From NCBI RefSeq assembly GCF_964194025.1, contig NC_134468.1:86056001-86120000 (forward strand): a DNA stretch of 64,000 nucleotides. Reading direction: 5' to 3'. The notes below the pieces were generated by a model. That model was given only the letters and a program-made list of their open reading frames with translations. It ran no database searches and was not told the DNA's origin. Positions 16,201 through 45,960 of this stretch are shown one piece after another (position 1 is the first letter of the stretch; each line of letters starts with the position of its first letter). Position numbers and translations under genes: made by a program. This DNA comes from Convolutriloba macropyga. Taxonomy: Eukaryota.

Positions 16201-18313
16201 CTGAGACACAAGTTCTCTAGCAATATTTAGTGGATGTTTTTTGTCTTTGCGTATGTTTGTCTTGCCTTTTGTTTTTGTACAACATATACCTGATAATTGG
16301 TTATTTCAGTTGCTCTAGGACCCATTACTGATTCACTTTAAAGATTTCGTTTTATAGCTTGTTTTTTTGACTTTCAAGTTAATTTTAAATAAAGTTTTCA
16401 ACTGTCCTTTTTTCTCTCATTTTTGCCACCATGTAACTCAATCTCGTCTCACTATTAGGTAGTCTCAAATTCTTGTTGCTTCAAACAACAAAAGTATGTT
16501 TGTTAGTTTTTTCTCTGTTAGTTATTTATTTTGACTAATGGCTTCGACAATATAATTTCACTAAAAATTTTAGATTTTTCTACTGTTAATTTTGGTAATT
16601 TTGGGTCTTTTTGTAGTCGTTTCTCCGTTTTCATTTTATAAGGAAGACACTCGTTTTCAAAAACATTGTAATTTTGAGCTCTGCGATTTTTATTTCTTTT
16701 TCAGTCGATTGGTAGCTTATTATCTATAGAGACAGGTTACGACCCGTTTCCAGTAATGTATAATTTAATCTTTAAACCGGTTTTTATTTCAACCAGTTGT
16801 TTGGATTTGTTACTTCTGTTACCACGAGAGTTCATAATGTTTTTTATTTGCACATTTTAACCGGCTTTTATTTTCTTTTTAAAATATATCAATAAAGGTA
16901 GGTACCATTGGCTTTGAAATATTGAGCAATTGAACATTTTTGATGATCTGTGACAAGTTTATGGTTTTAACGGCTTCACTGCAATTTCTTCGCAAAGTTG
17001 AATTAAACTTTTTAATTCTGCTGGTTTTTGTAGTCGGATGACGTACACTGGATAATGACAGGTATCAATTGCTTCCTATGGAGATATACATGAAGATCTT
17101 AGCGATTTCAGTTAATATCTTAAGACAATAATCACTTCGAATTTAAATGTTTTTGTAAAAAGAAACGTATTTTTGAACTTCGCTCCTTTTTGCTCTTTTT
17201 TGTGGACTTGTTACCCAGTCGCTTGAGGACAGGTCCCACATTTTTTCTAATGTATTATAGGTTAATTTGTTTTGTCTAACATTTTATCTTATGCGAGTTT
17301 GATATTGTTATGATCTTGTTAATGTATATCGAGTTTTGGTCGTTATTAATGTTTATTTGGTTTTTATTATCCTTTTCTAGTATTCTTATTAACAACAAAT
17401 TTCATTAACAACAATTCTTATTAACAACAAAGAATGTGGATTAGCAGGGCCGTAACAATGTGCGTACGCACATTACCAAGCCTCCTTGATTTGTCTATCT
17501 GACAAATGTGTTGAGATAGTCGCTGGTGTGTGTAGGGGGGGTGTGAATGACCACGGATAGATAATCTTTCCGCTATTTCAGGATAAAATTGCTATTTAAA
17601 CAATGCTTTTGAAACTTACCTACGCTTTATTTCTTTTTTCCCTCATTCGGATAGACGCACACTCGGAAAGATTGGCGTCCTTTCCAACATTTTCATTGGC
17701 GGAAAATTGTTAAAATTTCTTCCACAAACGTGTTTTAGTTGAAAGTAGCAGCTCAATTTCGCGAATATCTACCTGATTTTTACCAATCTGTTAATATTTA
17801 TCCAATAATTCTGTTTAAAGCTCTATATCTCCTTCTCGATGTTCGGAATCAGCCAATCAGAAAGCAATACTCCAATTTACTCAATTGTGATTGGCGAGCA
17901 ATAGAATGTCTATATTTTGGTACGTCTGCCATTTTCACTAGCGCCGTTAAATTGAATTAGGATGCAAACCACTTATGTATCCGGCTATTAGAGATATTAT
18001 TCCTAATTTATTATGAAAGTTCCACATGCATAAGTTATTGCGGTTTTTATTTCTTTCTAATTGCGCTTGAACGAAGTTGGAATCAATAGCCTGAGTTGTC
18101 TTTCTTCTACAATAATTTTTTGAATTGGCTACAATTGCCCCTCCCCCTAACCAACGCCCTCCGGATTGAAGTCCACAAAAACTATTCCGAGGCGATTATT
18201 CGGGTGCAATTTGTACGTCGTTAGTTGTTCATGCTCTGTTTATGCGTGCCCTTTTCCATTTTTTCACTGTTAGGAGTGCTTGTTCTCGTTGAATTTAATT
18301 TCAAAATTTGTAG

Positions 18314-18358
18314 GTGGACTGTCCTCGAAATCTGGCCAAATCAGTGACTGTGGAGTGA
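18314..18358 (+). CDS. GFPT: GFAT terminal coding exon (duplicate copy 2)
   Basis: Identical to 13182-13226 including the acceptor; lies in the second half of the tandem duplication. Confidence 0.7.
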   Translation: MDCPRNLAKSVTVE

Positions 18359-21300
18359 GACCAGAGAAAACATTCAGTGGAACCCAATAAAGCTGTTCAA
18401 TATCTGATGAATACAGTACTCACTCACATGTACTTGGTTATCTTTTGCAATCATCGCCTGAATTCGGGAACCTATGGAACGGTTCTTGGAGAAAGTTATT
18501 GCTCACGTATTTCCAATTCCGGAACCTATGGAAGGGATCTTTTTCCAATGGATTCTGAGCTTGTCTCTGTTGCAACGATCAATTTATATGACCAAATTTT
18601 CACCATATTTTCTTTGCAAATGTCTGTTCTACTTATTTATGCAATCTCATCGTTTGTTTAATGGAGCTCTTGACTCACGTTTCGTCTGTTCAACAGAAGG
18701 AGTTCTTGGAGAACTTTCACCAATCAAACGAATTTGGAATAAATTTTGAAGGGGTATGATGTTAATAATGAAATTAAAACTAGGTGCTACTATATGAAGA
18801 TAAATATTACCCTGTTCATAAATAAATGTATTATAGCTGCAACTGTTAATGGGTGCAATTTCACTTAAAACCACCGAAATTCTGATAATATTCATCTTAG
18901 TTCTTAGGCTTAAATATTGCATGCCACGAAATAAAATTTGAAGTTTCACTGGGCTCAACATAATTTTTCTTAGCTATAATAATCAGAAATTTTTTTCCAA
19001 TATAGTTATTTCGGGTCCTCTTTATAGACTCCCCCCGTCCCGAAGTTCAGGTATAATTACCATGATTGGGGGGCTTTACCTTATATGAAGATATGGTGGT
19101 GGTGGGGGGGGGGGTCGATCTTTATGAGATGCAGGTACTTTACATGTTATCAAAATTTCAGTGAGCGTCATTTTGTCTGTTAAAATTTGGCTTATTTCTC
19201 TGTATAATGTTGAAAGTAGTATTGTTATAAATGCTGTCCATCTTGTCTATTGATATAGTGGGTGGGGTATTATGGTTGTTTGTTCTGTGTCTTACTGTTG
19301 CCGCCTGGAGTAGTTAGAATCTAATGTGGATCTTCAAATTTATTTCCTTTTATTCTTTAATAAATACTTCAATTTTACCAAGACTCAAAGTTGTTCAATA
19401 AATAGTCTTCTCTGCCAAATTTTTGAAATGAACCTCAATTAGGAACTGAATGCGAGTTTCAGATGCTGTACGACGCACTTTTGAGTGAACGCCAGTCGAG
19501 ACCGGATGGCTATCTTGCAAGACGATTGGTTATCTTGCCAAATTTTACAAGATCTTGCAAGTTAAACATTTGAAATTGACTTAGGAGTCGAGAGCAAAAA
19601 TAAAATATTTGTTACTCACCGAAAATGCGAACTCGGAAATAATTTACACAGTCATAATATTATAATAAGGATGTGGTTTGAATAGCTCGTATTCTGAAGT
19701 TAAGTCTGTTGCTAAAATAAAACCGATTGTGATCGATGAGCTTAAATAGCCCCTGTCGCGATCAGGTTAAGGCCATGGACTTCTTTGTAGAGGACGGGGG
19801 ATAGAACCTCACCATTGTCAAAGTTTTTGCGCCTGTACCGTTCTAAATTGTTTGCCTCGCCAGTGGTTTGAGAGCAATTCGCCCGACGTTGGTCGTTTTT
19901 TTAAACTTCATACTGCGATAAAAGTTAGTACTTTTCAACCACCCCCTCTTTCGAATTCAGTTTTTTGTATTCATGTCGCTTTTAAATTGACCTTCGTCTG
20001 CACCGTCAACTTTTGATATGATAATAAGTTTTTTTCATACGAATGAACAGTATAATTTGAAACGGCCTCTCGCGATTATTTAAAATGGCTTTACTTGCTG
20101 ACCTTTACAAGCAAACTCAAGAAAACGCATTCTAATTGAAAACTAGTTCAGCGCAAAATCGGCGACATCATACAAGTTCATCAAAAAAGTTTGTTTATCT
20201 CGATATGACTCTCAACTCTTCGAATTCGTTGTTGTCTCAGGGTAGGATGACAAATTTTTTGTTCCGACCCACTTTAGTGGGGGGAGGAACTATATACTCT
20301 AATGGACTTTTTTTCGTTGTCAATTTTGGCCGATCGATATAATCATGGTAGAAAGTTGTGTGTGGTATCACTAGAAAGCCCGTCCAGCGTAGAGTATGGA
20401 ATTAAAAAGTGTTTTTGATTTTCACTTTTTACAGCGAGTTATCGAGGTTTAAAATTTTGGGAATAGAAGAAGATATTCCGTTGTTTTTTTCACATTTTCC
20501 GTAATTTTGGCCAAATTTTCGCGAATTTTGCTAAAATATGTTAATTGTTAACGGTAGTGGGATTGATTTTATCTTTAAAGATAGACGAGGGTTGTTGATT
20601 TGTTCAATCTGAGTTTTCTTGGCTATAATTCACGCTAGATTTCTAAATGCAGACTTTTTTTGTCGAAAATGGGACCAAATATGTTTTTTTAGCCCACTTT
20701 CTTTAAATTTGCCGGAAGTGGACACCTTAAGACTGCTGTCATATTCTTCGTTAGCTCGACAAAAGCTAGCTGTTCTCCCACTGGCTTTAATAGTCTTCTG
20801 GAATTATAACAGCCAGTTTTTCGCAATTTTTAACTCGATGATTATTCAAAATGTATTTTTTTTGATATTATACTGTGTTTACAAAAAATGAGACCCAGGT
20901 TTTTATGGCTCTGACCAATTGTTTTTGTAAAATTGTATGGACTTATGTTCTGCTTTCATTTGTATTTTTTTTTGTAGTCCACTGACTTAGTCTCCTCAAT
21001 CAGTGATCAATTGACTTTTTATGAGGAAGAAGGGAACCGAGTCAATGCTTTCAGTTGTTATCTAATGTCTCATGACTTTGAATACATTTGTTTTCAGAAA
21101 CTGTCTGTGCTTTTTCGAACTTTGCAACTATTTAAAAATAATTCAGTCGAACTTTGCAACTATTTTCGAACTTTGCAGCTATTCAGTCTCAGTAAAAACA
21201 GGCGGAAAACTATTGCTTGAGAGTTGACGGGTGCAATTGAAGGAAAGTATAGTCAACAAAATAAACAGCGTTGAAAAAAGGCGTATCTAAATATGTTTCT

Positions 21301-23703
21301 TGATTTTGTTAAATAGTTTATTCTTTGGTCTGAGACACAAGTTCTCTAGCAATATTTAGTGGATGTTTTTTGTCTTTGCGTATGTTTGTCTTGCCTTTTG
21401 TTTTTGTACAACATATACCTGATAATTGGTTATTTCAGTTGCTCTAGGACCCATTACTGATTCACTTTAAAGATTTCGTTTTATAGCTTGTTTTTTTGAC
21501 TTTCAAGTTAATTTTAAATAAAGTTTTCAACTGTCCTTTTTTCTCTCATTTTTGCCACCATGTAACTCAATCTCGTCTCACTATTAGGTAGTCTCAAATT
21601 CTTGTTGCTTCAAACAACAAAAGTATGTTTGTTAGTTTTTTCTCTGTTAGTTATTTATTTTGACTAATGGCTTCGACAATATAATTTCACTAAAAATTTT
21701 AGATTTTTCTACTGTTAATTTTGGTAATTTTGGGTCTTTTTGTAGTCGTTTCTCCGTTTTCATTTTATAAGGAAGACACTCGTTTTCAAAAACATTGTAA
21801 TTTTGAGCTCTGCGATTTTTATTTCTTTTTCAGTCGATTGGTAGCTTATTATCTATAGAGACAGGTTACGACCCGTTTCCAGTAATGTATAATTTAATCT
21901 TTAAACCGGTTTTTATTTCAACCAGTTGTTTGGATTTGTTACTTCTGTTACCACGAGAGTTCATAATGTTTTTTATTTGCACATTTTAACCGGCTTTTAT
22001 TTTCTTTTTAAAATATATCAATAAAGGTAGGTACCATTGGCTTTGAAATATTGAGCAATTGAACATTTTTGATGATCTGTGACAAGTTTATGGTTTTAAC
22101 GGCTTCACTGCAATTTCTTCGCAAAGTTGAATTAAACTTTTTAATTCTGCTGGTTTTTGTAGTCGGATGACGTACACTGGATAATGACAGGTATCAATTG
22201 CTTCCTATGGAGATATACATGAAGATCTTAGCGATTTCAGTTAATATCTTAAGACAATAATCACTTCGAATTTAAATGTTTTTGTAAAAAGAAACGTATT
22301 TTTGAACTTCGCTCCTTTTTGCTCTTTTTTGTGGACTTGTTACCCAGTCGCTTGAGGACAGGTCCCACATTTTTTCTAATGTATTATAGGTTAATTTGTT
22401 TTGTCTAACATTTTATCTTATGCGAGTTTGATATTGTTATGATCTTGTTAATGTATATCGAGTTTTGGTCGTTATTAATGTTTATTTGGTTTTTATTATC
22501 CTTTTCTAGTATTCTTATTAACAACAAATTTCATTAACAACAATTCTTATTAACAACAAAGAATGTGGATTAGCAGGGCCGTAACAATGTGCGTACGCAC
22601 ATTACCAAGCCTCCTTGATTTGTCTATCTGACAAATGTGTTGAGATAGTCGCTGGTGTGTGTAGGGGGGGTGTGAATGACCACGGATAGATAATCTTTCC
22701 GCTATTTCAGGATAAAATTGCTATTTAAACAATGCTTTTGAAACTTACCTACGCTTTATTTCTTTTTTCCCTCATTCGGATAGACGCACACTCGGAAAGA
22801 TTGGCGTCCTTTCCAACATTTTCATTGGCGGAAAATTGTTAAAATTTCTTCCACAAACGTGTTTTAGTTGAAAGTAGCAGCTCAATTTCGCGAATATCTA
22901 CCTGATTTTTACCAATCTGTTAATATTTATCCAATAATTCTGTTTAAAGCTCTATATCTCCTTCTCGATGTTGACGGCAAGGATTGAAGTTTTCAACGTT
23001 TGTTTGTACGATGAAAACTTTTTTGAAGGAATTTCTTCAGTTTGATTTTTGACATTTAAATGTTTTGACCATTTAAAGTGTCTAAAACGTTTGGTTATCA
23101 TAAAATGTTGACACCGAAGCTCTAATGCATCTGCTCCAGCGTCAGGTTTCTTATTCATTTTGTATAACAATTTGAAATCTTAAAGGTTATTAAGAATTTT
23201 GTCAATTTAAAGCTTCCGGATCAACTACTAGAGTAGTTATTGCAGGGGTTTTAATGAGCAGCTTCTGTTATGCATTAAGAGATTTTTGTTTCGCATTACT
23301 GAAAATCAGCTAATTTTTAGAAAAATCAGGCTAGTAAAGTAATGATAAACTACATTAATCTTCATCACGATCTTTATTTGATTTGCAGTTGTTAGCCCAA
23401 GAGATATTTGAACACCGAAACGTGTGACATTATATCATTTGGACAGTTTTTTTAAAAAAAAAATTGACTGTCCCTTCCTACATGCTCAGTACTCTAGTTT
23501 AAACTTTTTATTAGCTCTGAATATCTCACGCAGTATGCTGGGCGCTAGACTAGGTAGCAGAAGACGAAGCTTAAGCATAAGCCCCGGAAATCCACACTAC
23601 GCTTTAGTTACCCGATTATCAGTTTACATAAACGTTGGCGCTAATTGAGGCGGTGAAAAGACAATAACGTTGCTCAGATCGCATTCAAAGTTTCAGGTGT
23701 TAA

Positions 23704-23843
23704 ATGTCTCTATTGTTGAACAACCGTGGGCTGCCTCCAACTGTGAGTTGGAAACAGTTTTTGCCCAAAAGCCCTACGAAGAGAAGAGAGAAGCGTGGAC
23801 ACAGGAAGCTTTTCATAGCACCTGCACTCATACAAAAAAGCAG
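23704..23843 (+). CDS. EXOSC6: Exosome complex component MTR3, exon 1
   Basis: MSLLLNNRGLPPTVSWKQFLPKSPTKRREKRGHRKLFIAPALIQKS-AG|GTAACA. The phase-2 donor joins A-GGC-TCC to give KSRGSCYVECG, matching the RNase PH N-terminal R..R....R...GS.Y.E pattern. Confidence 0.85.
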
Positions 23844-25615: not shown

Positions 25616-28600
25616 GTGTTAGTCCTTTTGGTGTTTTTTTACATAGATTTTTTGCGTGAGATTTTTTGTCTGACCTATTTGACTTTTCGTCTTCAAAAAC
25701 GAGATAAACAGGTAGCGCCCAGCGGGCATTAAGTTCTCTTAGATGTCTTTAGCTCACTAGTCTCCAATTATGCGCGTAAGAGAAATTGTGTTGAGACTTA
25801 TTTTTATGATTTATTTTTATGACTTATTATTCTTCTCAAAACCAACTATTATGTATTGCAATCTTTCTGTGCCACTTCATTCCAAGATCAAACAGGAAAT
25901 TAGTGCATATGTTGAAATTTCTTAGTAATTTTGTTTTAATTTGATTACTGAGGTATACACTAAGCCGATGGCTAATAAAGTCAATATCATTTTCAACCGT
26001 TTCAATATATATTAATTATGTGACTTTCAAAGTTAAATCAATAATAAAATCACGATTTTAATGATTTTTTCCAAAACGTTAAAACAGATACAACACAAGA
26101 ACCACTTACGGGTTGAAAAAAATCCTATCTCCATTGAATAAAATAAAGTATGTGCAATAATTTTTTTTAAAATAAAGCTCTGGCAGAGAAAAATAAAGCT
26201 GTGACAGAGTGCTCTTTACAAGATTATCAGCAAAATAATCTCTTACTAACAATATCAACCATTTTATTACCATCACTGCTATCACTAACCATCTCATAGT
26301 TAAAACAATTGCATGACATATAACACCATCAACAGCAGCTTCAAATTCAGAACTAAGTTGTATTGGCTGTGGTCCTATATATTCACTTTGATATCTAGTC
26401 TCAGATATTTATAATCTACGATTACTTTCAATTGTTTTATTATTTATATATGGTTTATTATAAAGTAATCCATTATGATTTTGATTAAGATTCACTATCT
26501 CTTTAAACACCTCATTATAATTTAGTTCCATAATCTATATTCATCCTATCTTCGGGATAAAACTCACTGCCGATCTTACACTAACAGTCAGTAACTTCCA
26601 TTATTTTAAATAAACATGCATCTTTATCTTGTACCTTAACATTATTCTTCTCAAAACCAACTATTATGTTTTGCAATCTTTCTGTGCCACTTCATTCCAA
26701 GATCAAACAGGAAATTAGTGCATATGTTGAATTTTTTTAGTAATTTTATTTTAATTTGATTACTGAGGTATACACTAAGCCGATGGCTAATAAAGTCAAT
26801 ATCATTTTCAACCGTTTCAATATATATTAATTATGTGACTTTCAAAGTTAAATCAATAATAAAATCACGATTTTAATGATTTTTTTCCAAAACGTTAAAA
26901 CAGAAACAACACAAGAACCACTTGCGGGTTGAAAAAAAATCCTATCTCCATTGAATAAAATAAAGTATGTGCAATAATTTTTTTTAAAGTAAAGCTCTGG
27001 CAGAGAAAAATAAAGCTGTGACAGAGTGCTCTTTACAAGATTATCAGCAAAATAATCTCTTACTAACAATATCAACCATTTTATTACCATCACTGCTATC
27101 ACTAACCATCTCATAGTTAAAACAATTGCATGACATATAACACCATCAACAGCAGCTTTAAATTTAAAATTTAAGTTGTATTGGCTGTGGTCCTATATAT
27201 TCACTTTGATATCTAGTCTCAGATATTTATAATCTACGATTACTTTCAATTGTTTTATGATTTATATATGGTTTATTATAAAGTAATCCATTATGATTTT
27301 GATTAAGATTCACTATCTCTTTAAACACCTCATTATAATTTAGTTCCATAATCTATATTCATCCTATCTTCGGGATAAAACTCACTGCCGATCTTACACT
27401 AACAGTCAGTAACTTCCATTATTTTAAATAAACATGCATCTTTAACTTGTACCTTAACATTATTCTTCTCAAAACCAACTATTATGTTTTGCAATCTTTC
27501 TGTGCCACTTCATTCCAAGGTCAAACAGGAAATTAGTGCATATGTTGAATTTTTTTAGTAATTTTATTTTAATTTGATTACTGAGGTATACACTAAGCCG
27601 ATGGCTAATAAAGTCAATATCATTTTCAACCGTTTCAATATATATTAATTATGTGACTTTCAAAGTTAAATCAATAATAAAATCACGTTTTTAATGATTT
27701 TTTTCCAAAACGTTAAAACAGAAACAACACAAGAACCACTTACGGGTTGAAAAAAAATCCTATCTCCATTGAATAAAATAAAGTATGTGCAATATTTTTT
27801 TTTAAAATAAAGCTCTGGCAGAGAAAAATAAAGCTGTGACAGAGTGCTCTTTACAAGATTATCAGCAAAATAATCTCTTACTAACAATATCAACCATTTT
27901 ATTACCATCACTGCTATCACTAACCATCTCATAGTTAAAACAATTGCATGACATATAACACCATCAACAGCAGCTTTAAATTTAAAACTTAAGTTGTATT
28001 GGCTGTGGTCCTATATATTCACTTTGATATCTAGTCTCAGATATTTATAATCTACGATTACTTTCAATTGTTTTATGATTTATATATGGTTTATTATAAA
28101 GTATTCCATTATGATTTTGATTGAGATTCACTATCTCTTTAAACACCTCATTGTGAGTATTAGTTCCATAATCTATATTCATCCTATCTTCAGGATAAAA
28201 CTCACTGCCGATCTTACACTAACAGTCAGTAACTTCCATTATTTTAAATAATTATGCATCTTTAACTTGTACCTTAACATTTTCTCCTCAAAACCAACTA
28301 TTATGAATTGCAATCTTTCTGTGCCACTTCATTCCAAGATCAAACAGGAAATTAGTGCATATGTTGAATTTTTTTAGTAATTTTATTTTAATTTGATTAC
28401 TGAGGTATACACTAAGCCGATGGCTAATAAAGTCAATATCATTTTCAACCGTTTCAATATATATTAATTATGTGACTTTCAAAGTTAAATCAATAATAAA
28501 ATCACGTTTTTAATGATTTTTTTCCAAAACGTTAAAACAGAAACAACACAAGAACCACTTACGGGTTGAAAAAAAATCCTATCTCCATTGAATAAAATAA

Positions 28601-29610
28601 AGTATGTGCAATATTTTTTTTAAAATAAAGCTCTGGCAGAGAAAAATAAAGCTGTGACAGAGTGCTCTTTACAAGATTATCAGCAAAATAATCTCTTACT
28701 AACAATATCAACCATTTTATTACCATCACTGCTATCACTAACCATCTCATAGTTAAAACAATTGCATGACATATAACACCATCAACAGCAGCTTTAAATT
28801 TAAAACTTAAGTTGTATTGGCTGTGGTCCTATATATTCACTTTGATATCTAGTCTCAGATATTTATAATGTACGATTACTTTCAATTGTTTTATGATTTA
28901 TATATGGTTTATTATAAAGTATTCCATTATGATTTTGATTGAGATTCACTATCTCTTTAAACACCTCATTGTGAGTATTAGTTCCATAATCTATATTCAT
29001 CCTATCTTCAGGATAAAACTCACTGCCGATCTTACACTAACAGTCAGTAACTTCCATTATTTTAAATAATTATGCATCTTTAACTTGTACCTTAACATTT
29101 TCTCCTCAAAACCAACTATTATGTATTGCAATCTTTCTGTGCCACTTCATTCCAAGATCAAACAAGAAATTAGTGCATATATTGAATTTTTTTAGTAATT
29201 TTATTTTAATTTGATTACTGAGTTATACACTGAGCCGATGGCTAATAAAGTCAATATCATTTTCAACAGTTTTACCATTCACTCAGTTACGCAAATTTTT
29301 TATTTAACGACTCTTTTAACCCACTAGATATACCTCGGTTTTCAGTTGTTTTGATACTAATTTATTGTAATCTTAATACGTGTAGTTGGCTCTAGATTCT
29401 ATAGCCTATCCGAATACATAGAGGAGGATTAAAATCTGGAAAATTACGCCATACCCTATCTTAAATACGGGGTCCTCACCCCCTCCCCGTGCTGATCTCT
29501 CCACCTATATTCTACTGACGCAAAACAACGGCATTTGACAGATTATTAATGCTCCTCTTAGAGTATCTTAGAGGTTGTTATTTACTATTCTTAATTGATA
29601 GTCTATTCAG

Positions 29611-29813
29611 AGGCTCCTGTTACGTAGAATGTGGAAACACGATAGTAGTGGCTGCTGTGTATGGCCCTCGTGAGAACTTGAAGAGTGATGTGAATGTGAT
29701 GGAGGGAAAACTATCCTGTCAATTTGTGATTAGCCCTTTTGCAACTGTGCCAGGTGAACAGGCCACAACAGCAGGGGCTGTTAATGAAAGAGAGACGCAA
29801 AAACTTTGTGCAG
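29611..29813 (+). CDS. EXOSC6: EXOSC6 exon 2, copy 1 (open frame, K>I variant)
   Basis: TTCAG acceptor, 203 nt, GSCYVECGNTIVVAAVYGPRE..., GTAGAG donor. Confidence 0.55.
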
Positions 29814-31308
29814 GTAGAGAATAAATTTATCCCGGATTCGAAATCGTTTGAGGGCAAATCGCGGGAAGTTGGTAGGTTTTGTTTTTGAATATCAGATTTG
29901 GCGATCTTTTCCTTTAATTAGATTTATAATATGAAAAGTTGACCTCAAACTGTTTTTTTTCCATTTTTGCTGTTCTGCCTTGAATCACTCCTTTGGTCGC
30001 TGGCGTGATTAAAAAAACGTTCAACTTGTGCTTAAATATTTTGGTCTTAGAACTCTGGTCAAGTTTTCAAATAGCAGTAGTGGGTTATTTGTGCTATGCG
30101 ACCACGAAACGAAAGATGATTGCATAGCACATATTGCCCACTACTACCCTAATTTTGAAAAACTAAATACGAAATGTATACTAATTAAGTGACTTTCAAA
30201 GTTAAATCAATAATAAAACCACGATTCTAATGATTTTTTTCCATAACGTTAAAACAGAAACAACAGGAACACTTACGGTTTAAAAATCCTATCTCCATTG
30301 AATAAAATAAAGTATGTTTGCAAAATTTTTTTTGAAAAATAAAGCTGAGACAGAGCGCTCTTTACAAGATTATCAGCAAAGTCATTATCTCTTACTAACA
30401 ATATCAACCATTTTATTACCATTACTGCTAACACTGACCATCTCTTAGTTAAAACAAATGCATGACATATAACATCATCAACAGCAGCTTCAAATTCAGA
30501 ACTAAGTTGTATTGGCTGTGGTCCTATATAATCACTTTGATATCTAGTCTCAGATATTTATATTCTACGATTACTGTCAAATGTTTTATGATTTATATAT
30601 GGTTTATTATTGTAAAGTTATCCATCATAATTTTGATTAAAATTCATTATCTCTTTAAACACATTGTAATTATTAGTTCCATAATCTATATTCGTTCTAC
30701 CTTCGGGATAAAACTCACCGCCAGTCTTACACTAACAGTCAGTAACTTCCATTATTTTAAGTAAACATGCATCTTTAACTTGTACCTTAACATTCTTCTT
30801 CTCAAAACCAACTATTATGAATTGCAATCTTTCCGTGCCACTTTACTCCAAGGTCAAACAAGAAATTAGTGCATATATTGATTATTTTTAGTAATTTTAT
30901 GTAAATTTGATTACTGATGTATACACTAAGCCGATGGCTAATAAAGTCAAAATCATTTTCAACAGTTTTACCATTTACTCAGTTACGCAAATTTTTTATT
31001 TAACGACTCTTTTAACCCACTAGATATACCTCGGTTTTCAGTTGTTTTGATACTAATTTATTGTAATATCTTAATATTTGTAGGTGGCTCTAGATTCTGT
31101 AGCCTATCCGAATACATAGAGCAGGATTCAAATCTGGAAAATTACGCCATACCCTCTCTTAAATACGGGGTCCTCACCCCCTCCCCGTGCTGGTCTCTCC
31201 AACTATTTTTTACTGACGCAAAACAACGGCATTTGACAGATTTTTAATGCTCCTCTTAGAGTATCTAAGAGGTTGTTATTTACTATTCTTAATTGATAGT
31301 CTATTCAG

Positions 31309-31510
31309 AGGCTTCTGTTACGTAGAATGTGGAAACATGATTGTAGTGGCTGCTGTGTATGGCCTTCGTGAGAACTTGAAGAGGGATGTGAATGTGATGG
31401 AGGGAAACTATCCTGTTAATTTGTGATTAGATCTTTTGCAACTGTGCCAGGTGAACAGGCCACAACAGCAGGGGCTGTTAATGAAAGAGAGACGCAAAAA
31501 ATTTGTGCAG
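31309..31510 (+). pseudogene. EXOSC6: EXOSC6 exon 2, copy 2 (frameshifted pseudo-exon)
   Basis: 1-nt deletion (GGAAACTA vs GGAAAACTA) plus S>F and P>L changes. Confidence 0.85.
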
Positions 31511-33911
31511 GTAGAGAATAAATTTATCCAGGATTCGAAGTCGTTTGAGGGCAAATCGCGCGAAGTTGGTAGGTTTTGTTTTCGAATATCAGATTTGGCG
31601 ATCTATTCCTTTAATTAGATTTATAATATAAAAAGTTGACCTCAAACTGGTTTTTTCCATTTTTGCTGTTCTGCTTTGAATCACTCCTTTGGTCGCTGGC
31701 GTGATTAAAAAAACGTTTAACTTGTGCTTAAAGATTTTGGTCTTAGAACTCTGGTCAAAATTTTCAAATGGCAGTAGTGAGTTATTTGTGCTATGCGACC
31801 ACGAAACGAAAGATGATTGCATAGCACATATTGCCCACTACTACCCTAATTTTGAAAAACTAAATACGAAATGTAAACTAATTAAGTGACTTTCAAAGTT
31901 AAATCAATAATGAAATCACGATTCTAATGATTTTTCCATAACGTTAAAACAGAAAAAACAGGAACACTTACGGTTAAAAAATCCTATCTCCATTGAATAA
32001 AATAAAGTATGTTTGCAAAAAATTTATTTGAAAAATAATCAAAGCTGAGACAGAGCGCTCTTTACAAGATTATCAGCAAAGTCATTCTCTTACTAACAAT
32101 ATCAACCATTTTATTACCAGTACTGCTAACACTAACCATCTATTAGTTGAAACAAATGCATGACAAATAACATCATCAACAGCAGCTTCAAATTCAGAAC
32201 TAAGTTGTATTGGCTGTGGTCCTATATAATCACTTTGATATCTAGTCTCAGATATTTATAATCTACGATTACTTTCAATTGTTTTATGATTTATATATGG
32301 TTTATTATAAAGTAGTCCATTATGTTTTTGATTAAGATTCACTATCTCTTTAAACACCACATTATAATTATTAGTTCCATAATCTATATTCATCCTATCT
32401 TCGGGATAAAACTCACTGCCGATCTTACACTAACAGTCAGTAACTTCCATTATTTTAAATAAACATGCATCTTTAACTTGTACCTTAACATTGTTCTTCT
32501 CAAAACCAACTATTATGTATTGCAATCTTTCCGTGCCACTTGACTCCAAGGTGAAACAAGAAATTAGTGCATATATTGATTATTTTTAGTAATTTTATGT
32601 AAATTTGATTACTGAGGTATACACTAAGCCGATGGCTAATAAAGTCAATATCATTTTCAACAGTTGTACCAATTACTCAGTTACGCAAATTTTTTTTTAA
32701 CGACTCTTTTAACCCACTAGATATACCTCGGTTTTCAGTTGTTTTGATACTAATTTATTGTAATATATTGTATACTAATTAAGTGACTTTCAAAGTTAAA
32801 TCAATAATGAAATCACGATTCTAATGATTTTTTTCCATAACGTTAAAACAGAAAAAACAGGAACACTTACGGTTAAAAAATCCTATCTCCATTGAATAAA
32901 ATAAAGTATGTTTGCAAAAATTTTTTTGAAAAATAATCAAAGCTGAGACAGAGCGCTCTTTACAAGATTATCAGCAAAGTCATTCTCTTACTAACAATAT
33001 CAACCATTTTATTACCAGTACTGCTAACACTAACCATCTATTAGTTGAAACAAATGCATGACAAATAACATCATCAACAGCAGCTTCAAATTCAGAACTA
33101 AGTTGTATTGGCTGTGGTCCTATATAATCACTTTGATATCTAGTCTCAGATATTTATAATCTACGATTACTTTCAATTGTTTTATGATTTATATATGGTT
33201 TATTATAAAGTAATCCATTATGATTTTGATTAAGATTCACTATCTCTTTAAACACCATATTATAATTATTAGTTCCATAATCTATATTCATCCTATCTTC
33301 GGGATAAAACTCACTGCCGATCTTACACTAACAGTCAGTAACTTCCATTATTTTAAATAAACATGCATCTTTAACTTTTACCTTAACATTATTCTTCTCA
33401 AAACCAACTATTATGTATTGCAATCTTTCCGTGCCACTTGACTCCAAGGTGAAACAAGAAATTAGTGCATATATTGATTATTTTTAGTAATTTTATGTAA
33501 ATTTGATTACTGAGGTATACACTAAGCCGATGGCTAATAAAGTCAATATCATTTTCAACAGTTGTACCAATTACTCAGTTAGTTACGCAAATTTTTAGTT
33601 TAACGACTCTTTTAACCCACTAGATATACCTGGGTTTTCAGTTGTTTTGATACTAATTCATTGTAATATCTTAATACGTGTAGGTGGCTCTAGATTCTAT
33701 AGCCTATCCGAATACATAGAGGAGGATTAAAATCTGGAAAATTACGCCATACCCTATCTTAAATACATGAGAGTCCTCGCCCACTCCCCTTGCTGGTCTG
33801 TCCACCTATATACTACTGACGCAAAACAACGGAATTTGACAGATTATTAATACTCCTCTTAGAGTATCTTAGAGGTTGTTATTTACTATTCTTATTTGAT
33901 AGTCTATTCAG

Positions 33912-34114
33912 AGGCTCCTGTTACGTGGAATGTGGAAACACGAAAGTAGTGGCTGCTGTGTATGGCCCCCGTGAGAACTTGAAGAGTGATGTGAATGTGA
34001 TGGAGGGAAAACTATCCTGTCAATTTGTGATTAGCCCTTTTGCAACTGTGCCAGGTGAACAGGCCACAACAGCAGGGGCTGTTAATGAAAGAGAGACGCA
34101 AAAACTTTGTGCAG
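33912..34114 (+). CDS. EXOSC6: EXOSC6 exon 2, copy 3 (open frame)
   Basis: AG/GT bounded, 203 nt, GSCYVECGNTKVVAAVYGPRE...TAGAVNERETQKLCA. Confidence 0.6.
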
Positions 34115-35684
34115 GTAGAGAATAAATTTATCCAGGATTCGAAATCTCGTTTGAGGGCAAATCGCGCGAAGTTGGTAGGTTTTGTTTTTGAATATCAGAT
34201 TTGGCGATCTTCTCCTTTAATTAGATTTATAATATAAAAAGTTGACCTCAAACTGCTTTTTTCCATTTTTGCTGTTCTGCTTTGAATCACTCCTTTGGTC
34301 GCTGGCGTGATTAAAAAAAACGTTTAACTTGTGCTTAAATATTTTGGTCTTTGAACTTTGGTCAAAATTTTCAAATGGCAGTAGTGGGTTATTTGTGCTA
34401 TGCGACCACGAAACGAAAGATGATTGCATAGCACATATTGCCCAAATTTTGACAACCTAAATACGAAATGTATACTAATTAAGTGACTTTCAAAGTTAAA
34501 TCTACCCTACCATACTACCCTAATTTTGAAAAACTAAATACGAAATGTATACTAATTAAGTGACTTTCAAAGTTAAATCAATAATAAAATCACGATTCTA
34601 ATAATTTTTCCATAGCGTTAAAACAGAAACAGCAGGAACACTTACGGTTTAAAAATCCTATCTCCATTGAATAAAATAAAGTATGTTTGGAAAATTGTTT
34701 TTGAAAAATAAAGCTGAGACAGAGCGCTTTTTACAAGATTATCAGCAAAGTCATTATCTCTTACTAACAATATCAACCATTTTGTTACCAGTACTGCTAA
34801 CACTAACCATCTATTAGTTGAAACAAATGCATGACAAATAACATCATCAACAGCAGCTTCAAATTCAGAACTAAGTTGTATTGGCTGTGGTCCTATATAA
34901 TCACTTTGATATCTAGTCTCAGATATTTATAATCTACGATTACTTTCAATTGTTTTATGATTTATATATGGTTTATTATAAAGTAATCCATTATGATTTT
35001 GATTAAGATTCACTATCTCTTTAAACACCACATTATAATTATTAGTTCCATAATCTATATTCATCCTATCTTCGGGATAAAACTCACTGCCGATCTTACA
35101 CTAACAGTCAGTAACTTCCATTATTTTAAATAAACATGCATCTTTAACTTGTACCTTAACATTATTCTTCTCAAAACCAACTATTATGTATTGCAATCTT
35201 TCCGTGCAACTTTACTCCAAGGTCAAACAAGAAATTAGTGTATATATTGATTATTTTTAGTAATTTTATGTAAGTTTGATTACTGAGGTATACACTAAGC
35301 CGATGGCTAATAAAGTCAATATCATTTTCAACAGTTGTACCAATTACTCAGTTAGTTACGCAAATTTTTAGTTTAACGACTCTTTTAACCCACTAGATAT
35401 ACCTGGGTTTTCAGTTGTTTTGATACTAATTCATTGTAATATCTTAATACGTGTAGGTGGCTCTAGATTCTATAGCCTATCCGAATACATAGAGGAGGAT
35501 TAAAATCTGGAAAATTACGCCATACCCTATCTTAAATACATGAGAGTCCTCGCCCACTCCCCGTGCTGGTCTGTCCAACTATATACTACTGACGCAAAAC
35601 AACGGAATTTGACAGATTATTAATACTCCTCTTAGAGTATCTTAGAGGTTGTTATTTACTATTCTTATTTGATAGTCTCTTCAG

Positions 35685-35887
35685 AGGCTCCTGTTACGTG
35701 GAATGTGGAAACACGAAAGTAGTGGCTGCTGTGTATGGCCCCCGTGAGAACTTGAAGAGTGATGTGAATGTGATGGAGGGAAAACTATCCTGTCAATTTG
35801 TGATTAGCCCTTTTGCAACTGTGCCAGGTGAACAGGCCACAACAGTCGGGGCTGTTAATGAAAGAGAGACGCAAAAACTTTGTGCAG
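35685..35887 (+). CDS. EXOSC6: EXOSC6 exon 2, copy 4 (open frame, A>V variant)
   Basis: AG/GT bounded, 203 nt, ...TTVGAVNERETQKLCA. Confidence 0.55.
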
Positions 35888-37388
35888 GTAGAGAATAAAT
35901 TTATCCAGGATTCGAAATCGTTTGAGGGCAAATCGCGCGAAGTTGGTAGGTTTTGTTTTTGAATATCAGATTTGGCGATGTTCTCCTTTAATTAGATTTA
36001 TAATATAAAAAGTTGACCTCAAACTGTTTTTTCCATTTTTGCTGTTCTGCTTTGAATCACTCCTTTGGTCGCTGGCGTGATTAAAAAAACGTTTAACTTG
36101 TGCTTAAATATTTTGGTCTTAGAACTTTGGTCAAAATTTTCAAATGGCAGTAGTGGGTTATTTGTGCTATGCGACCACGAAACGAAAGATGATTGCATAG
36201 CACATATTGCCCACTACTACCCTAATTTTGAAAAACTAAATACGAAATGTATACTAATTAAGTGACTTTCAAAGTTAAATCAATAATAAAATCACGATTC
36301 TAATGATTTTTTTCCATAGCGTTAAAACAGAAACAACAGGAACACTTACGGTTTAAAAATCCTATCTCCATTGAATAAAATAAAGTATGTTTGCAAAATT
36401 TTTTTTGAAAAATAAAGCTGAGACAGAGCGCTTTTTACAAGATTATCAGCAAAGTCATTATCTCTTACTAACAATATCAACCATTTTATTACCATTACTG
36501 CTAACACTAACCATCTCTTAGTTAAAACAAATGCATGACATATAACATTATCAGCAGCAGCTTTAAATTCAGAACTAAGTTGTATTGGCTGTGGTCTTAT
36601 ATAATCACTTTGATATCTAGTCTCAGATATTTATATTCTACGATTACTATCAAATGTTTTATGATTTATATATGGTTTATTATTGTAAAGTTATCCATCA
36701 TAATTTTGATTAAAATTCACTATCTCTTTAAACACATTGTATTTATTAGTTCCATAATCTATATTCATCCTACCTTCGGGATAAAACTCACCGCCAATCT
36801 TACACTAACTGTCAGTAACTTCCATTATTTTAAGTAAACATGCATCTTTAACTTGTACCTTAACATTCTTCTTCTCAAAACCAACTATTATGTATTGCAA
36901 TCTTTCCGTGCCACTTTACTCCAAGGTCAAACAAGAAATTAGTGCATATATTGATTATTTTTAGTAATTTTATGTAAGTTTGATTACTGAGGTATACACT
37001 AAGCCGATGGCTAATAAAGTCAATATCATTTTCAACAGTTGTACCAATTACTCAGTTAGTTACGCAAATTTTTAGTTTAACGACTCTTTTAACCCACTAG
37101 ATATATCTGGGTTTTCAGTTGTTTTGATATTTATTTATTGTAATATCTTAATACGTGTAGGTGGCTCTAGATTCTATATCCTATCCGAATACATAGAGGA
37201 GGATTCAAGTCTGGAAAAATACGCCATAACCTATCTTAAATACATGAGAGTCCTCGCCCACTCCCCGTGCTGGTCTGTCCACCTATATACTACTGACGCA
37301 AAACAACGGAATTTGACAGATTATTAATACTCCTCTTAGAGTATATTAGAGGTTGTTATTTACTATTCTTATTTGATAGTCTATTCAG

Positions 37389-37591
37389 AGGCTCCTGTTA
37401 CGTGGAATGTGGAAACACGAAAGTAGTGGCTGCTGTGTATGGCCCCCGTGAGAACTTGAAGAGTGATGTGAATGTGATGGAGGGAAAACTATCCTGTCAA
37501 TTTGTGATTAGCCCTTTTGCAACTGTGCCAGGTGAACAGGCCACAACAGCAGGGGCTGCTGATGAAAGAGAGACACAAAAGCTGTGTGCAG
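37389..37591 (+). CDS. EXOSC6: EXOSC6 exon 2, copy 5 (probable primary copy, followed by unique intron sequence)
   Basis: AG/GT bounded, 203 nt, ...TAGAADERETQKLCA; phase 1 joins exon 3 (G|AT). Confidence 0.85.
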
Positions 37592-37992
37592 GTAGGGAAT
37601 CAGGTTTTCCATGATTTCCAAATTGTGGAACGTTCCCTGTAAAAATGATAGGTATTTTAACACGTTAAATTGTTCACACATGGTAAAGGAAATAAAAATC
37701 TCACGGGGGAAAGGATGGAAAGTTCAGTTCCAAATTCTCATACGATTTCATAATATGCGTTCTTAACGGTGTTTTTACTACGTTGCTTCCCGATGTTGTT
37801 TTTAACTTCAATCATGAGAACTAAATTTTGCAGATTTTTGGTGCCGTACATTTTCAAAGATTTTGGTTGATAATTTTGACAATTAGGAACCGAAGACCGA
37901 CTTTTTATGATGACTTTTTTTAATTTCCTTTAATTGATTACTTTTTTTCTCAGTACTGATAGAGGTGTGATTTTTTTGAAACGATGTTACAG

Positions 37993-38392: not shown

Positions 38393-38805
38393 AATTGCTC
38401 TGGAACGAATTTTGAAGTAATTGTTGTACACGTGTTTGTCTTTTTATGCAAAATTTTTTGCTTCACCGTTTTCTTCTAGAATATTTTTGGATTTCACTTC
38501 TTGAGTGAATTTACACGAGTGTGTTTTTGATATTTTGCGGGACCTAATTTCATCTTATCGAGTACCGAGAAATTAAGTTTTGGTTGTTATTAAATCAAAA
38601 GCGATTGTAAGCTAGGAGAGCAAAAAGGCCAGACAGCAGAGTGGTAAATGCTTCAGTTTATAACGGAGCATGTCAAGGATCCGAATCCCGCCTTGGTGAG
38701 ATTTTTTTGCACCCATAAAGAATATTTTCTTTGCTACAGCGCCGTTTGATTAATTTTCCCCGCCTGTCATTCAAGAGCGATTTGTCTGATATTAGTCAGT
38801 GTATG
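38393..38805 (+). mobile_element. HINE-like element, family B, with tRNA-like core 38628-38698
   Basis: AATTGCTCTGGAACGA ... CATTCAAGAGCGATT subTIRs; 3' hairpin CTGA-TATTAG-TCAG; D-arm GCAGAGTGGTAAATGC. Confidence 0.65.
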
Positions 38806-38950
38806 TTTTGTTGACTAAACGACAAATTTCTGTCATTCTTCATATAGCAATAGTGGCTAGAAAAGATTTGACCTTTTAATGCAATTTGTACGCATCGTGT
38901 AATCAGTTTATCGCCTAACACACAGTAGAAGGGATTTAAATTATCTGTTT

Positions 38951-39371
38951 GATAGCCACACTGCGATAGCTGGGACTATTATTGGACGTCCTCTTGGTTT
39001 TTTGTGGTCAAGATTTTTGTTAAGACCATATGACGTCACAGGCACTTGAAATCTGCCTTTTGTTCATTCGTTCATGCAATTTCAACAGAAGTGTGTGCGT
39101 GACGTCATTTCTCACTCTGAGTGGAGCGAGTTTTTTGTTCATTCGCGTATAAGGTCAAGTGAATGTGTGTCAATCTAAATGAAGTTTGAGAACAGCTAAT
39201 AGAGGTAGCAATAACTTATACAGATTCATAATCTGTATAATATCTCACTGTATAAATCTTTTGGTCTGTCTTTACTGTTTTTACACTGCAGATCTTTTAA
39301 ATCTTTTACTGTTTTTAGACTGCAGATCCACGAAGCTAATGTGGCTATTTTCTGGCAATCTGTCAGCTATG
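38951..39371 (+). mobile_element. HINE/DINE-1-like element, family A (duplicate at 44287-44681)
   Basis: GATAGCCACACTGCGATAGCTG...GTGGCTATTTTCTGGCAATCTGTCAGCTATG. Confidence 0.7.
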
Positions 39372-39477
39372 TTAAGTGAGAGCTCATCCTTACTTACAGA
39401 CTTCCCGGAGGCAGGGGATCGAATTATCGATCGTTGGCGTGTCAATCACACGCCTTAACTCTCGGCTATGACGCCAC
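39372..39477 (-). mobile_element. tRNA-derived SINE (other copies 44682-44787 minus and ~62190-62300 plus)
   Basis: Minus strand reads GTGGCGTCATAGCCGAGAGTTAAGGCG (A box)...ATTCGATCCC (B box), with a tail GATGAGCTCT.ACTTAAC shared by the 62190 copy. Confidence 0.6.
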
Positions 39478-39613
39478 TGTTTCTTAGTTTCAATACCCAA
39501 TGGGTTTTTTAGGAACTATATCCGAAAAAAGAAAACTTGAACAGTTAAAATTATACTAAGTTTTTTGATCGCATTGTAAACGTTAGAATTACAGTCGCAA
39601 TTTTGTTTTGATT

Positions 39614-40125
39614 AATAGCCGCCGTCAGCCTCTCAACTGCTATTATTTTGGCGCTTTTTTAATTCGCTTTACCGTTTGATCACGTTTTTTTGTTCTTAAG
39701 TCTCGATTTTCTTGATTGACTTGATTTACCTCACTCACTTGTTCAACTGAATGGATTTTAAATTCTTTCACGGATTGAATTACGCAATGTAGTGAATACG
39801 GTCAAAGTCAAAAGATCAAAATCAAAAGAAACAGGGTAAGCATTAAGGCCGGTCATTAAGTCATAGTGCATTAGGTTATCAAAGTTCATTAAAGTGATTG
39901 ATAGCTGGCATTAGAATTATGCTTAATAGCGTTCCGTATAGAAGTTGAATTAAGTGTAATTTAGGAATCTAGCCGAATATGCAGAATTTGCACACCAAAT
40001 AAAAAAGTTTTGACACTTAAAAATATTATGTCAATTTCTCTCTTATTCTTCTCTTTTTCTGTTTCAATCCTAATGTGCGCCAAGAGGGTAAACAGCGGAT
40101 TTTTTTTGGCAATTTGCCGGCTATG
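39614..40125 (+). mobile_element. HINE/DINE-1-like element, family A
   Basis: AATAGCCGCCGTCAGCC...TGGCAATTTGCCGGCTATG. Confidence 0.7.
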
Positions 40126-40428
40126 TTTGACTTATAAACGTTTACAACATTTTTCTAGTACACTTTGTGCGCAATGAATTTTTGAGCATCGTGTAATCAA
40201 ACAATACTAATTGAAATTTAGATTTCCCGGTCTCATCACACAATTAATGAATGCAACTAAAACGAAAACTAAAAGTTAAAATTTTACAAGGATATTGGTC
40301 GTACCGTAAACGTTAGGTTTCTATTCGCAATTTTGATTTTTGTCGTGCCTGATCGGACCTTAAGCCTCTAGATTCCTGCTGTTAATTATACTGTTGTTTA
40401 CTCTTTGTCAAGCTGAATGGATGTTTAG

Positions 40429-40710
40429 GAAACATGTGAATACTCAATAGACCCTTGCTTTAATGATGAAACAATTAATTACGACAACGAACCCGACCAA
40501 TCAACGGCTGATGATCAACGTACATTATCGGTAGTAACTATCGGCTATCTTCCGAATGTGAATCAAATTGCAACTCTTAACCACCTGGGCCAGTGTCCTT
40601 CAGCAGAAGTGCTCTCAACAGCTGTCAAAAAATTCATTGAGAGTTGCCCACAAGTCTATGCTGCCGTCCAAACCTTTTTGAAACAAGATGCCCAAAATGA
40701 AAATATTTGA
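40429..40710 (+). CDS. EXOSC6: EXOSC6 terminal exon, copy 1 (gene about 289 aa)
   Basis: TTTAG acceptor, phase 0. ETCEYSIDP...VVTIGYLPNVNQIATL..LG...LSTAVKKFIESCPQVYAAVQTFL..stop matches the MTR3 C-terminus (DP; TVA.MP.LNQV; GC..LY..LQ..L). Confidence 0.88.
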   Translation, partial: ETCEYSIDPCFNDETINYDNEPDQSTADDQRTLSVVTIGYLPNVNQIATLNHLGQCPSAEVLSTAVKKFIESCPQVYAAVQTFLKQDAQNENI

Positions 40711-41542
40711 GAGAGTTTGTGTTTTCTATCGTTTATAGTTGAATGAACTATTAGAGAAGTATCTGGCTATGACTATGTCTTTTGTTTACTGATATCTGAT
40801 AGAATTTTAGTGTTCACATCTACTTTTTACTATTCACAGTGTCTTTTTTAATCAGTACTTTTGTTGGAGTGAAATTGGAGCTGAAATGACATTGAAAATG
40901 AGAGCGATTAGTTCCTCTTTAGTCAGTATTATATCTTTCATAAGGGATCAGGACATTTTTATTGATGAGTTTTGCTGCACGAACGCTGACTTAAGTGCAG
41001 CTTTGGTGAAAAAAAAAACAAATTCAAAGCTTCAAAACTGCACAACTTGTTTTATTAGATCATTTTGTGTTAACAGCAACAGCTACAATACGGGCTTGAT
41101 TTTTCAATTTTTTAAAAGGAAACTATTCTAAAAGTACCTTCAATCTACCTTAACACTCTTGTTTCAATGAAATGCAATTATCCCTCTTACAATTTGCGAA
41201 AACTTAGATTTTGGGGGGTGCTAAATTAACGGCTCTATGGGGGGGGCTAGCAGAAAAGATCAAGTTATTGCAGGTTAAGGAGACCTAAATATTTCCTTGA
41301 AAGAAACTGGATAAAATGGCTACTAATGCTCTAATAGTGCTACCATAAAAGCACGGTTTAAATCTAAAGAATGCTTGAGGAGGCAGATTTTCTTGAAGAG
41401 CGATTCTGCACCTCGTCCTTATTTTAATATCTCCTTCGCTTTTTTCGGGCCCTCTGAGCTAGCTACTCTATGCTCAATGAAACTAAAACCAAAGCCAACC
41501 CCTCCGCTTGAGACCGCTATCTGACGCTAGTCGTTTGTTTGT

Positions 41543-43676: not shown

Positions 43677-44966
43677 TTGTTCAAACATTGAAATGGGGCG
43701 GGTCAAAATAAGTAGTGATAAATATGTTGATAGACTTTGATGTCAATCAATTTTTACTGTGATAGTGTCGACGATTCCACTTCGTTTTTAGATTGTTATA
43801 TAAATCATCTTCACGCGGGGAAAAACCGAAGCTTGAATTCGAACGCGAATGTGCACTTTATAATATGGCAGACGTTACTACCATTACAGCCAGCTTGAAT
43901 TTGTGTAGAGTCCGGGGCTTCTGAAAAATTTCGGCAGCTCGTGAATTTTGATTGGTTGCTAAACCATTTTGTCGAGTTATTGTTACTGCAAAATTAAATT
44001 TTTTGCTTCAAGGATTGAGACCATATAAAACCCTTTTTTCCGTAGGGAACCAGAAGATTATTAATAGTTTGTGGAACATTCTATTATTCGTTTAGGCGCA
44101 ATATTGGTTGAAATTTTTTAGTCCTGCGGAGTAGGGATTTGTTTTGTTGACTAAACGACAAATTTCTGTCATTCTTCATATAGCAATAGTGGCTAGAAAA
44201 GATTTGACTTTTTAATGCAATTTGAACGTATCGTGTAATCAGTTTAGTGCCTAACACACAGTAGAATGGATTTAAATTATGTGTTTGATAGCCACACTGC
44301 GATAGCTGGGACTATTATTGGACTTCCTGTTGGTTTTTTGTAGTCAAGATTTTTGTTAAGACCATATGACGTCACAGGCACTTCAAATCTGCCTTTTGTT
44401 AATTCGTTCATGCAATTTCAACATAAGTGCGTGCGTGACGTCATTTCTCACTCTGAGTGGAGCGAGTTTTTTGTTCATTCGCGTATAAGGTCAAGTGAAT
44501 GTGTGTCAATCTAAATGAAGTTTAATTGAGAACAGCTAATAGAGGTAGCAATAACTTACACAGATTCATAATCTGTATAACATCTCAGTGTATAAATCTC
44601 TTGGTCTGTCTTTTTTTACGGTTTTTAGACTGCAGATCCACGAAGCTATTGCGGCTATTTTCTGGCAATCTGTCAGCTATGTTAAGTGAGAGCTCATCCT
44701 TACTTACAGACTTCCGGAGGCAGGAGATCGAACTATCGATCATTGGCGTGTCAATCACACGCCTTAACTCTCGGCTATGACGCCACTGTTTCTTAGTTTC
44801 AATACCCAATGGGTTTTTTAGGAACTATATCCCAAACTATATCCTAAACGTTAGGTTTCTATTCGCAATTTTGATTTTTGTCGTGCCTGATCGGACCTTA
44901 AGCCTCTAGAATCCTGCTGTTAATTATACTGTTGCTTACTCTTTGTCAAGCTGAATGGATATTTAG

Positions 44967-45248
44967 GAGACATGTGAATACTCAATAGACCCTTGCTTTG
45001 ATGATGAAACAATTGATTACGACAATGAACCCGACCAATCAACGGCTGATGATCAACGTACATTATCGGTAGTAACTATCGGCTATCTTCCGAATGTGAA
45101 CCAAATTGCGACTCTTAACCACCTGGGCCAGTGTCCTTCAGCAGAAGTGCTCTCAACAGCTGTCAAAAAATGCATTGAGAGTTGCCCACAAGTCTATGCT
45201 GCTGTCCAAACTTTTTTGAAACAAGATGCCCAAAATGAAGATATTTGA
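44967..45248 (+). CDS. EXOSC6: EXOSC6 terminal exon, duplicate copy 2 (open frame)
   Basis: TTTAG acceptor, 282 nt, no indels or premature stops; differs from copy 1 by about 10 substitutions. Confidence 0.65.
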   Translation, partial: ETCEYSIDPCFDDETIDYDNEPDQSTADDQRTLSVVTIGYLPNVNQIATLNHLGQCPSAEVLSTAVKKCIESCPQVYAAVQTFLKQDAQNEDI

Positions 45249-45960
45249 GATTGTTTTCTATCGTTTTTAGTTGAAAGAACTATTAGAGAAGTATCTGGCT
45301 ATGACTATGTCTTTTGTTTACTGATATCTGATAGAATTTTATTGTTCACATCTACTTTTTACTATTCACAGTGTCTTTTTTAATCAGTACTTTGGTTGGA
45401 GTGAAATTGGAGCTGAAATGATATTGAAAATGAGAGCGATTAGTTCGTCTTTAGTCAGTATTATATCTTTCATAAGGGATCAGGACATTTTTATTGCTGT
45501 GTTTTGCTGCACGAACGCTGACTTAAGTGCAGCTTTGGCGAAAAACACAAATTCAAAGCTTCAAAACTGCACAACTTGTTGGAGGTTTCTGCAGTTATTA
45601 CAGTTGCTAGAATGAGGCCATTTTTGGCTAACATACAAAACTTGGGCGTAATGTCCTGACTAATTTCCTGATTTGCCAAATTAATCCCCTCCGCACCAAC
45701 AATGTTCGCTCGAAGATTGGCATTAACGAATTAAGTAAAATATGTAATATGCTGCCTGACTGAAATCTTATCGGATAAAATTGCAGTCACCTGTCGTCGG
45801 ATCATCAAAATATCCTGATTATCAGTTACCGTCCCGTGAAAATAATTTTAAGTGGCGTCTAGGAAGACGTAGAAGAGGCAAATCTAGAAAGGGCCACAAC
45901 AACGGCAACCAAATCACAAAGAGTGTTTTTGATACGTCAATGTGCTGATGACAAACAACT

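Follow-up and report, generated by a model that had tools for sequence, protein, structure and literature searches.

Transposon-derived satellites consist of fragments of dead elements amplified head to tail, with nested divergence and mosaic homogenisation, and in mosquitoes endogenous viral elements act as sources of Piwi-interacting RNAs (piRNAs), the viral sequence being transcribed antisense from a host locus. The array described here, which can be compared with both systems, lies in EXOSC6, the gene for an RNA-exosome component, within a 64,000-nt stretch of the genome of the acoel Convolutriloba macropyga (contig NC_134468.1, positions 86,056,001 to 86,120,000; hereafter the window, from whose first nucleotide coordinates are counted), and is built of capsid-gene fragments of the virus-like Maverick/Polinton elements. 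According to passages of PMC8097293, these elements carry a double-jelly-roll major capsid protein and most of their genomic copies are decayed; Mavericks are put at 4.5% of another acoel genome in a section of PMC6451197. The closest described precedent for the exon copies that the array also carries is the pair of U2AF1 exons Ab/3, presented in part of PMC5224494 as a tandem exon duplication with mutually exclusive splicing enforced by nonsense-mediated decay (NMD).

We consider it probable that the array is a dead, chimeric remnant of two Mavericks in intron 1 of EXOSC6, copied in tandem partly together with exon 2; unequal crossover is the likely mechanism, and the array likely has no function of its own. 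It resembles transposon-derived satellites in its head-to-tail dead fragment, nested divergence, and mosaic homogenisation, but comprises only nine copies, is intragenic, and carries in its long unit a coding exon of an essential gene. EXOSC6 is single-copy in the genome, and the one protein that matches it closely, from the same species, bears the label exosome component MTR3-like; a metagenome search with P0001 gave only three 19-residue matches, judged spurious. From the positions of the exons, the array sits in intron 1, in agreement with the first-pass annotation, which had placed it inside EXOSC6:

23704..23843, plus strand: EXOSC6/MTR3 coding exon 1, a 100% match to P0001 residues 1-47, with GT donor
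25826..37626, no strand assigned: whole tandem array, from self-BLAST and mapping on the last unit
37389..37591, plus strand: annotated exon 2, 203 nt, donor +5 G, identical to P0001
37993..38237, plus strand: exon 3
44967..45248, plus strand: annotated terminal exon 4, a 100% match to P0001 residues 197-289

The assembly does contain the array, but the extent first assigned to it (25826..36946) was incomplete, as the array continues to 37626, and the extra copies of exon 2 and the end of a second Maverick family had been overlooked. A partial unit is followed by three short units of ~817 bp (26004-28454) and then by longer ones, which reach ~1.7 kb. A copy of exon 2 is present in five of the longer units (four extra copies and the annotated one) and absent from the three short ones and from one that is shortened (ending at ~32769). 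Long units are composed of the remnant, the intron end, and exon 2, and the 817-bp sub-unit has been amplified as well. In the last long unit, 260 bp of spacer, a 76-nt hairpin, ~240 bp, the antisense capsid end, the right end of the second family (family 2), 94 bp of host intron, and exon 2 follow one another.

The capsid copies were mapped by tblastn with an intact 414-aa capsid open reading frame (ORF) of the same genome, whose residue numbering is used below. Nine copies were found, the full ones with E values of 1e-43 to 1e-54, all on the minus strand against the plus-strand EXOSC6, and their C-termini (26245, 27062, 27880, 28698, 30394, 32092, 32990, 34763, and 36467) fall within 7 bp of the nine starts previously given; the partial copy and the peptide quoted with them are likewise present in the window:

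25835..25937, minus strand: partial capsid-gene fragment (tblastn)
26242..26722, minus strand: capsid 3' fragment, copy 1
27059..27540, minus strand: copy 2
27877..28359, minus strand: copy 3
28695..29177, minus strand: copy 4
30391..30875, minus strand: copy 5, upstream limit approximate
32089..32573, minus strand: copy 6, upstream limit approximate, in the unit that ends early at ~32769 without an exon
32987..33471, minus strand: copy 7, upstream limit approximate
34760..35244, minus strand: copy 8, upstream limit approximate
36464..36947, minus strand: copy 9, residues ~253-414 of the 414-aa ORF

Of a Maverick double-jelly-roll capsid gene, each copy retains the 3' ~40%, the first ~250 residues being absent from all nine. 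Copy 9, with X at its stops, matches Pfam PF21738 (E 1.5e-8, 34.7 bits, above the curated cut-off of 27) and, over 135 aa, shares 64% of its residues with the C-terminal region of the intact ORF. The predicted model of the intact ORF (pLDDT, the predicted local distance difference test score, of 91.7; 72-sequence alignment) is matched by Foldseek to the capsid of PBCV-1 (Paramecium bursaria chlorella virus 1; E 7e-15) and to those of iridovirus, Sputnik, and mavirus, with further matches to adomavirus LO7, MELD virus, and adintovirus, the fold being that of the parent ORF. These matches bear out the capsid identity formerly proposed from the order of motifs. PDB sequence searches with the intact ORF and its profile gave no match; out of 140 matches in P0003-P0272, the closest natural protein reaches 63% identity. 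Stops at residues 300 and 359 are common to all nine copies, and frame breaks near residues 263 and ~400 recur, appearing as separate tblastn pieces in most copies and in three-frame translations. The common stops show that the capsid gene was already dead when amplified, as had been supposed. Capsid-derived sequence amounts to ~4,456 nt of the 21,542-nt EXOSC6 coding span (21%), close to the ~4.4 kb of antisense sequence per pre-mRNA claimed earlier.

The two ends of the unit derive from different Maverick families:

30076..30151, plus strand: copy of the hairpin (old Maverick terminus)
31773..31848, plus strand: hairpin copy
34380..34443, plus strand: hairpin copy, truncated
36149..36224, plus strand: 76-nt hairpin starting AGTAGT, fold z -9.5
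36942..37294, plus strand: right end of the second family, comprising the last protease codons and an internally deleted terminal inverted repeat (TIR) ending ACTACT, 77-80% identical to dispersed elements
29516, 31214, 33817, and 35590: further family-2 right ends

The hairpin is colinear with decayed capsid genes at three other loci (L026, L027, and L071); at one of four loci tested, an inverted counterpart lies at a distance of ~13 kb, and the hairpin is therefore likely to be the terminus of an older Maverick lineage in which the capsid was the terminal gene. The family-2 right end stops 94 bp upstream of exon 2, and neither a left end nor a target-site duplication (TSD) partner of this insertion was found within the window. 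Because the two ends are not mutually inverted and the flanking hexamers differ, leaving no TSD, the most plausible reading of the unit is that a deletion fused two insertions. Movement of the unit as one chimeric mini-element was considered and is ruled out by the lack of a TSD. For the spacer that follows each extra exon (35923-36148 and its copies), the genome search revealed no clear counterpart elsewhere; compared with introns 1, 2, and 3, the 260-bp spacer had no match beyond chance except ~35 nt beside the exon.

Relatives of the remnant abound in the genome. All 126 scored among 1,792 candidate capsid-domain loci lie above the cut-off, most without internal stops, so a Maverick remnant in an intron is unremarkable. 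Outside the array, the best match, among the 40 scored of 1,716 candidates of a DNA-level search and the 40 scored of 1,520 of a second, is 80-81% identical, no parent closer than ~80% being found among them; to a young family (family 1) the array is 79-81% identical, and older decayed relatives are 69-73% identical to the array. Fifteen sampled family-1 loci have a median identity of 98.5% in the capsid segment, and many loci of the family keep open 414-aa capsid ORFs. Of four family-1 elements examined, three are bounded by TIRs with AGTAGT ends, whose two copies match over 772, 138, and 747 bp with 95.7-99.3% identity, and by perfect 6-bp TSDs; by their coordinates, the ends lie 15.6-16.3 kb apart. 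Young relatives with intact capsid ORFs thus exist in the same genome, as the first-pass annotation required. Capsid and Pox_A32 ATPase of family 1 score above the cut-off and the integrase below it (E 3.6e-6); the putative polymerase and protease pieces, named by their motifs, have no Pfam match (an older relative has a weak DNA_pol_B_2 match). Besides family 1, the genome contains another Maverick family, unrelated to it, and a decayed lineage of greater age. For family 2, one of six pairs tested (L042/L029) shows a 524-bp TIR pair of 89.9% identity with a 6-bp TSD, the integrase being above the cut-off and the Peptidase_C5 and Pox_A32 matches weak. In these defining features (AGTAGT/ACTACT ends, TIRs, 6-bp TSDs, and lengths of 14-16 kb), the dispersed relatives agree with the elements described in passages of PMC8097293. 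In clear distinction, the array unit is a ~1.15-kb two-family chimera without matching TIRs or a TSD, which cannot be autonomous and was multiplied in tandem, not by integration. The remnants L026, L031, L037, and L071 show tandem or inverted local duplication of capsid or terminal pieces, which suggests that local duplication of Maverick remnants is common in this genome.

The divergence among the copies (0.9-8.6%) is nested, with mosaic relationships. Comparison of the five long units gives a divergence of 5.4% for the capsid part and of 4.7%, 5.7%, 3.5%, and 4.0% for neighbouring segments, so the capsid part is not specially conserved. The ratio of nonsynonymous to synonymous substitution rates (dN/dS) is 0.88-1.32 in seven of ten pairs, those with at least 12 differences, and 0.26-0.39 or undefined in the other three, which have at most five. 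Against young family 1, the array shows a synonymous divergence (dS) of ~0.39 with dN/dS of ~0.5, which marks it as an older subfamily that diverged under selection and later decayed.

Exon 2 is present five times, in the annotated copy and in four extra ones:

29611..29813, plus strand: extra exon 2 (a), open frame, three amino-acid changes, donor +5 A
31309..31510, plus strand: extra exon 2 (b), 1-nt deletion and 11 non-synonymous codon changes including a stop, splice sites like the other extras
33912..34114, plus strand: extra exon 2 (c), open frame, two amino-acid changes, donor +5 A
35685..35887, plus strand: extra exon 2 (d), open frame, three amino-acid changes, donor +5 A

As the exon has 203 nt, not a multiple of three, its double inclusion shifts the frame. 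The donor reads GTAGAG in all four extra copies and GTAGGG in the annotated one, so that the extra donors lack the +5 G:C pair to the 5' end of the U1 of the same genome. Five differences common to the extra exons all fall within the last 33 of 203 nt (a segment chosen post hoc), as would be expected at the edge of a homogenising repeat, with unequal exchange acting on the interior. We assume that two neighbouring or nested Maverick insertions were fused by deletion and that a first duplication seeded further unequal exchanges, which would also have kept the exon copies alike over their first ~170 nt. With a weakened donor in common (+5 G to A), the four additional frame-shifting exons would then be mostly skipped, and transcripts with two copies of exon 2 would be removed by NMD. 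It is proposed that the essential gene tolerates the array because the extra exons are skipped through their weak donors, with NMD as a back-up. The region is prone to duplication, as seen in a block carrying exon 4 (92-96% identical) and in an adjacent 5.13-kb block without mismatches.

Several observations weigh against this explanation. The extra donors keep seven Watson-Crick pairs with U1, the same number as the working exon-1 donor, so the +5 change probably, but not demonstrably, causes skipping; open frames, with acceptors unchanged or nearly so, persist in three of the four extra copies; and a role at the RNA level would not predict dN/dS below 1, so that values near 1 by themselves exclude no such role. 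The array (25826-37626) also holds 54 sense-strand AATAAA motifs, or 4.6 per kb compared with 0.5-0.6 per kb in other intron stretches, likely a cost that a strictly neutral account has to accommodate. That the extra exons are skipped and that the array lacks a function are both points that we infer. The AATAAA excess, partly due to low GC content, may amount to a load of premature polyadenylation.

An unlikely explanation is that the extra copies serve as alternative exons, mutually exclusive by way of NMD, which give protein variants with two or three substitutions or tune the EXOSC6 level, the viral DNA being a passenger. Three of the copies are homologous adjacent exons with open frames, AG acceptors, and GT donors, and the frame shift on double inclusion follows the route given for U2AF1 in part of PMC5224494, where likewise an internal exon was duplicated along with the intron preceding it. 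However, homogenisation with the working exon as source also accounts for the open frames, and the 2-3 non-synonymous and 3-5 synonymous changes per copy are too few to show purifying selection. The decayed copy (b), which has decayed freely, retains the same splice sites, whose use would waste transcripts, and the one EXOSC6 protein of the species in the protein collection has the sequence of the last copy. Unlike U2AF1, EXOSC6 has five copies, a shared weakened donor, one decayed copy, a viral spacer, and no annotated alternative isoform. A second local duplication in EXOSC6 (38804-41051 compared with 44140-45580, 92-96% identical) carries the terminal exon, and its use as an alternative last exon is possible:

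40429..40710, plus strand: duplicate of terminal exon 4, open frame, four amino-acid changes, AG acceptor retained, stop codon

It is very unlikely that the array, though real, has a copy number inflated by the assembly, for example through two haplotypes joined in tandem. Large blocks do repeat at 94-97% (30142-32769 and 34513-37149), and the two copies of the adjacent 5.13-kb duplication align with 0 mismatches and 3 gap bases, but two haplotypes could not supply nine copies that fall into nested groups, nor five exon copies that differ from one another, and the short and long units each have their own junctions. This 5.13-kb duplication, just upstream of EXOSC6 (12713-17843 and 17845-22972), contains no ORF of more than 108 aa and is either very recent or a duplication of the assembly. 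Partial inflation of the assembly and alternative exon use can each coexist with tandem amplification of a dead remnant.

The first-pass annotation had favoured an antiviral memory cassette, with neutral expansion as the alternative, and the latter fits better. That the housekeeping pre-mRNA feeds ~4.5 kb of antisense-capsid RNA, possibly with the 76-nt hairpin, into a piRNA or small interfering RNA pathway silencing Mavericks is, in our judgement, highly improbable. The antisense orientation within a host transcript, the share of the gene span given above, and the stable hairpin agree with it; targets exist in the young family-1 elements with intact capsid ORFs and nearly identical TIRs, Piwi-domain genes are found at five loci (identified at the level of the domain), and 11-16 of the 65-66 28-mers per copy lie within three mismatches of a young element. 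Against 15 young loci, however, the array has a median of five mismatches per 28-mer, compared with 0-1 for ordinary family copies; only 0-1 of 65-66 28-mers per array copy are within one mismatch (four of the nine copies, same loci), compared with 65/65, 65/65, and 36/68 in three ordinary copies; and the longest exact match to the young loci is 19-23 nt. The 80-81% identity of the best match outside the array, the ~1,800 candidate Maverick loci that include far better templates, and the capsid part conserved no more than its flanks (5.4% compared with 3.5-5.7%) likewise speak against the cassette, as do the dN/dS near 1, the amplification of host exon 2 and non-capsid DNA along with the capsid, and the duplication of nearby segments (the exon 4 and upstream 5.13-kb blocks). 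The array is similar to the mosquito piRNA sources in being antisense viral sequence in a host locus, but differs in that it is ~80% identical to the young family and that its target would be an abundant resident element with many better templates. Searches of the open-access literature yielded no paper on the locus, on an intragenic array derived from Mavericks, or on piRNAs in the species, and the terms piwi, RNAi, Dicer, and Argonaute are absent from the text of PMC12849515. More improbable still is that the transcript of the essential and broadly expressed EXOSC6 permanently supplies small RNAs from its antisense-capsid and hairpin sequence, which would restrain a young Maverick family of roughly a thousand copies or more, the array being kept despite five frame-shifting copies of exon 2.

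Elsewhere in the window, host genes are found at 8538-10593 (gamma-glutamyl hydrolase-like, GATase/Peptidase_C26), 48272-53764 (RINT1), and 63291-63671 (a TPH-domain protein). Frames at 1297-2575 and 45952-47062 are, to judge by their motifs, degraded reverse-transcriptase-like remains of the long interspersed nuclear element type. No tRNA was found in the window.

Altogether, on the reading preferred here, the locus joins the duplication of an exon in tandem to a transposon-derived repeat array that is otherwise of an ordinary kind. Should array-specific small RNAs exist, it would constitute an intragenic, housekeeping-driven defence against an endogenous DNA virus. The large young Maverick population of this acoel is of more interest to virologists than the array. 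The array itself is a natural experiment in the survival of an essential single-copy gene under a five-fold frame-shifting exon, for which the change at donor position +5 offers a testable explanation.

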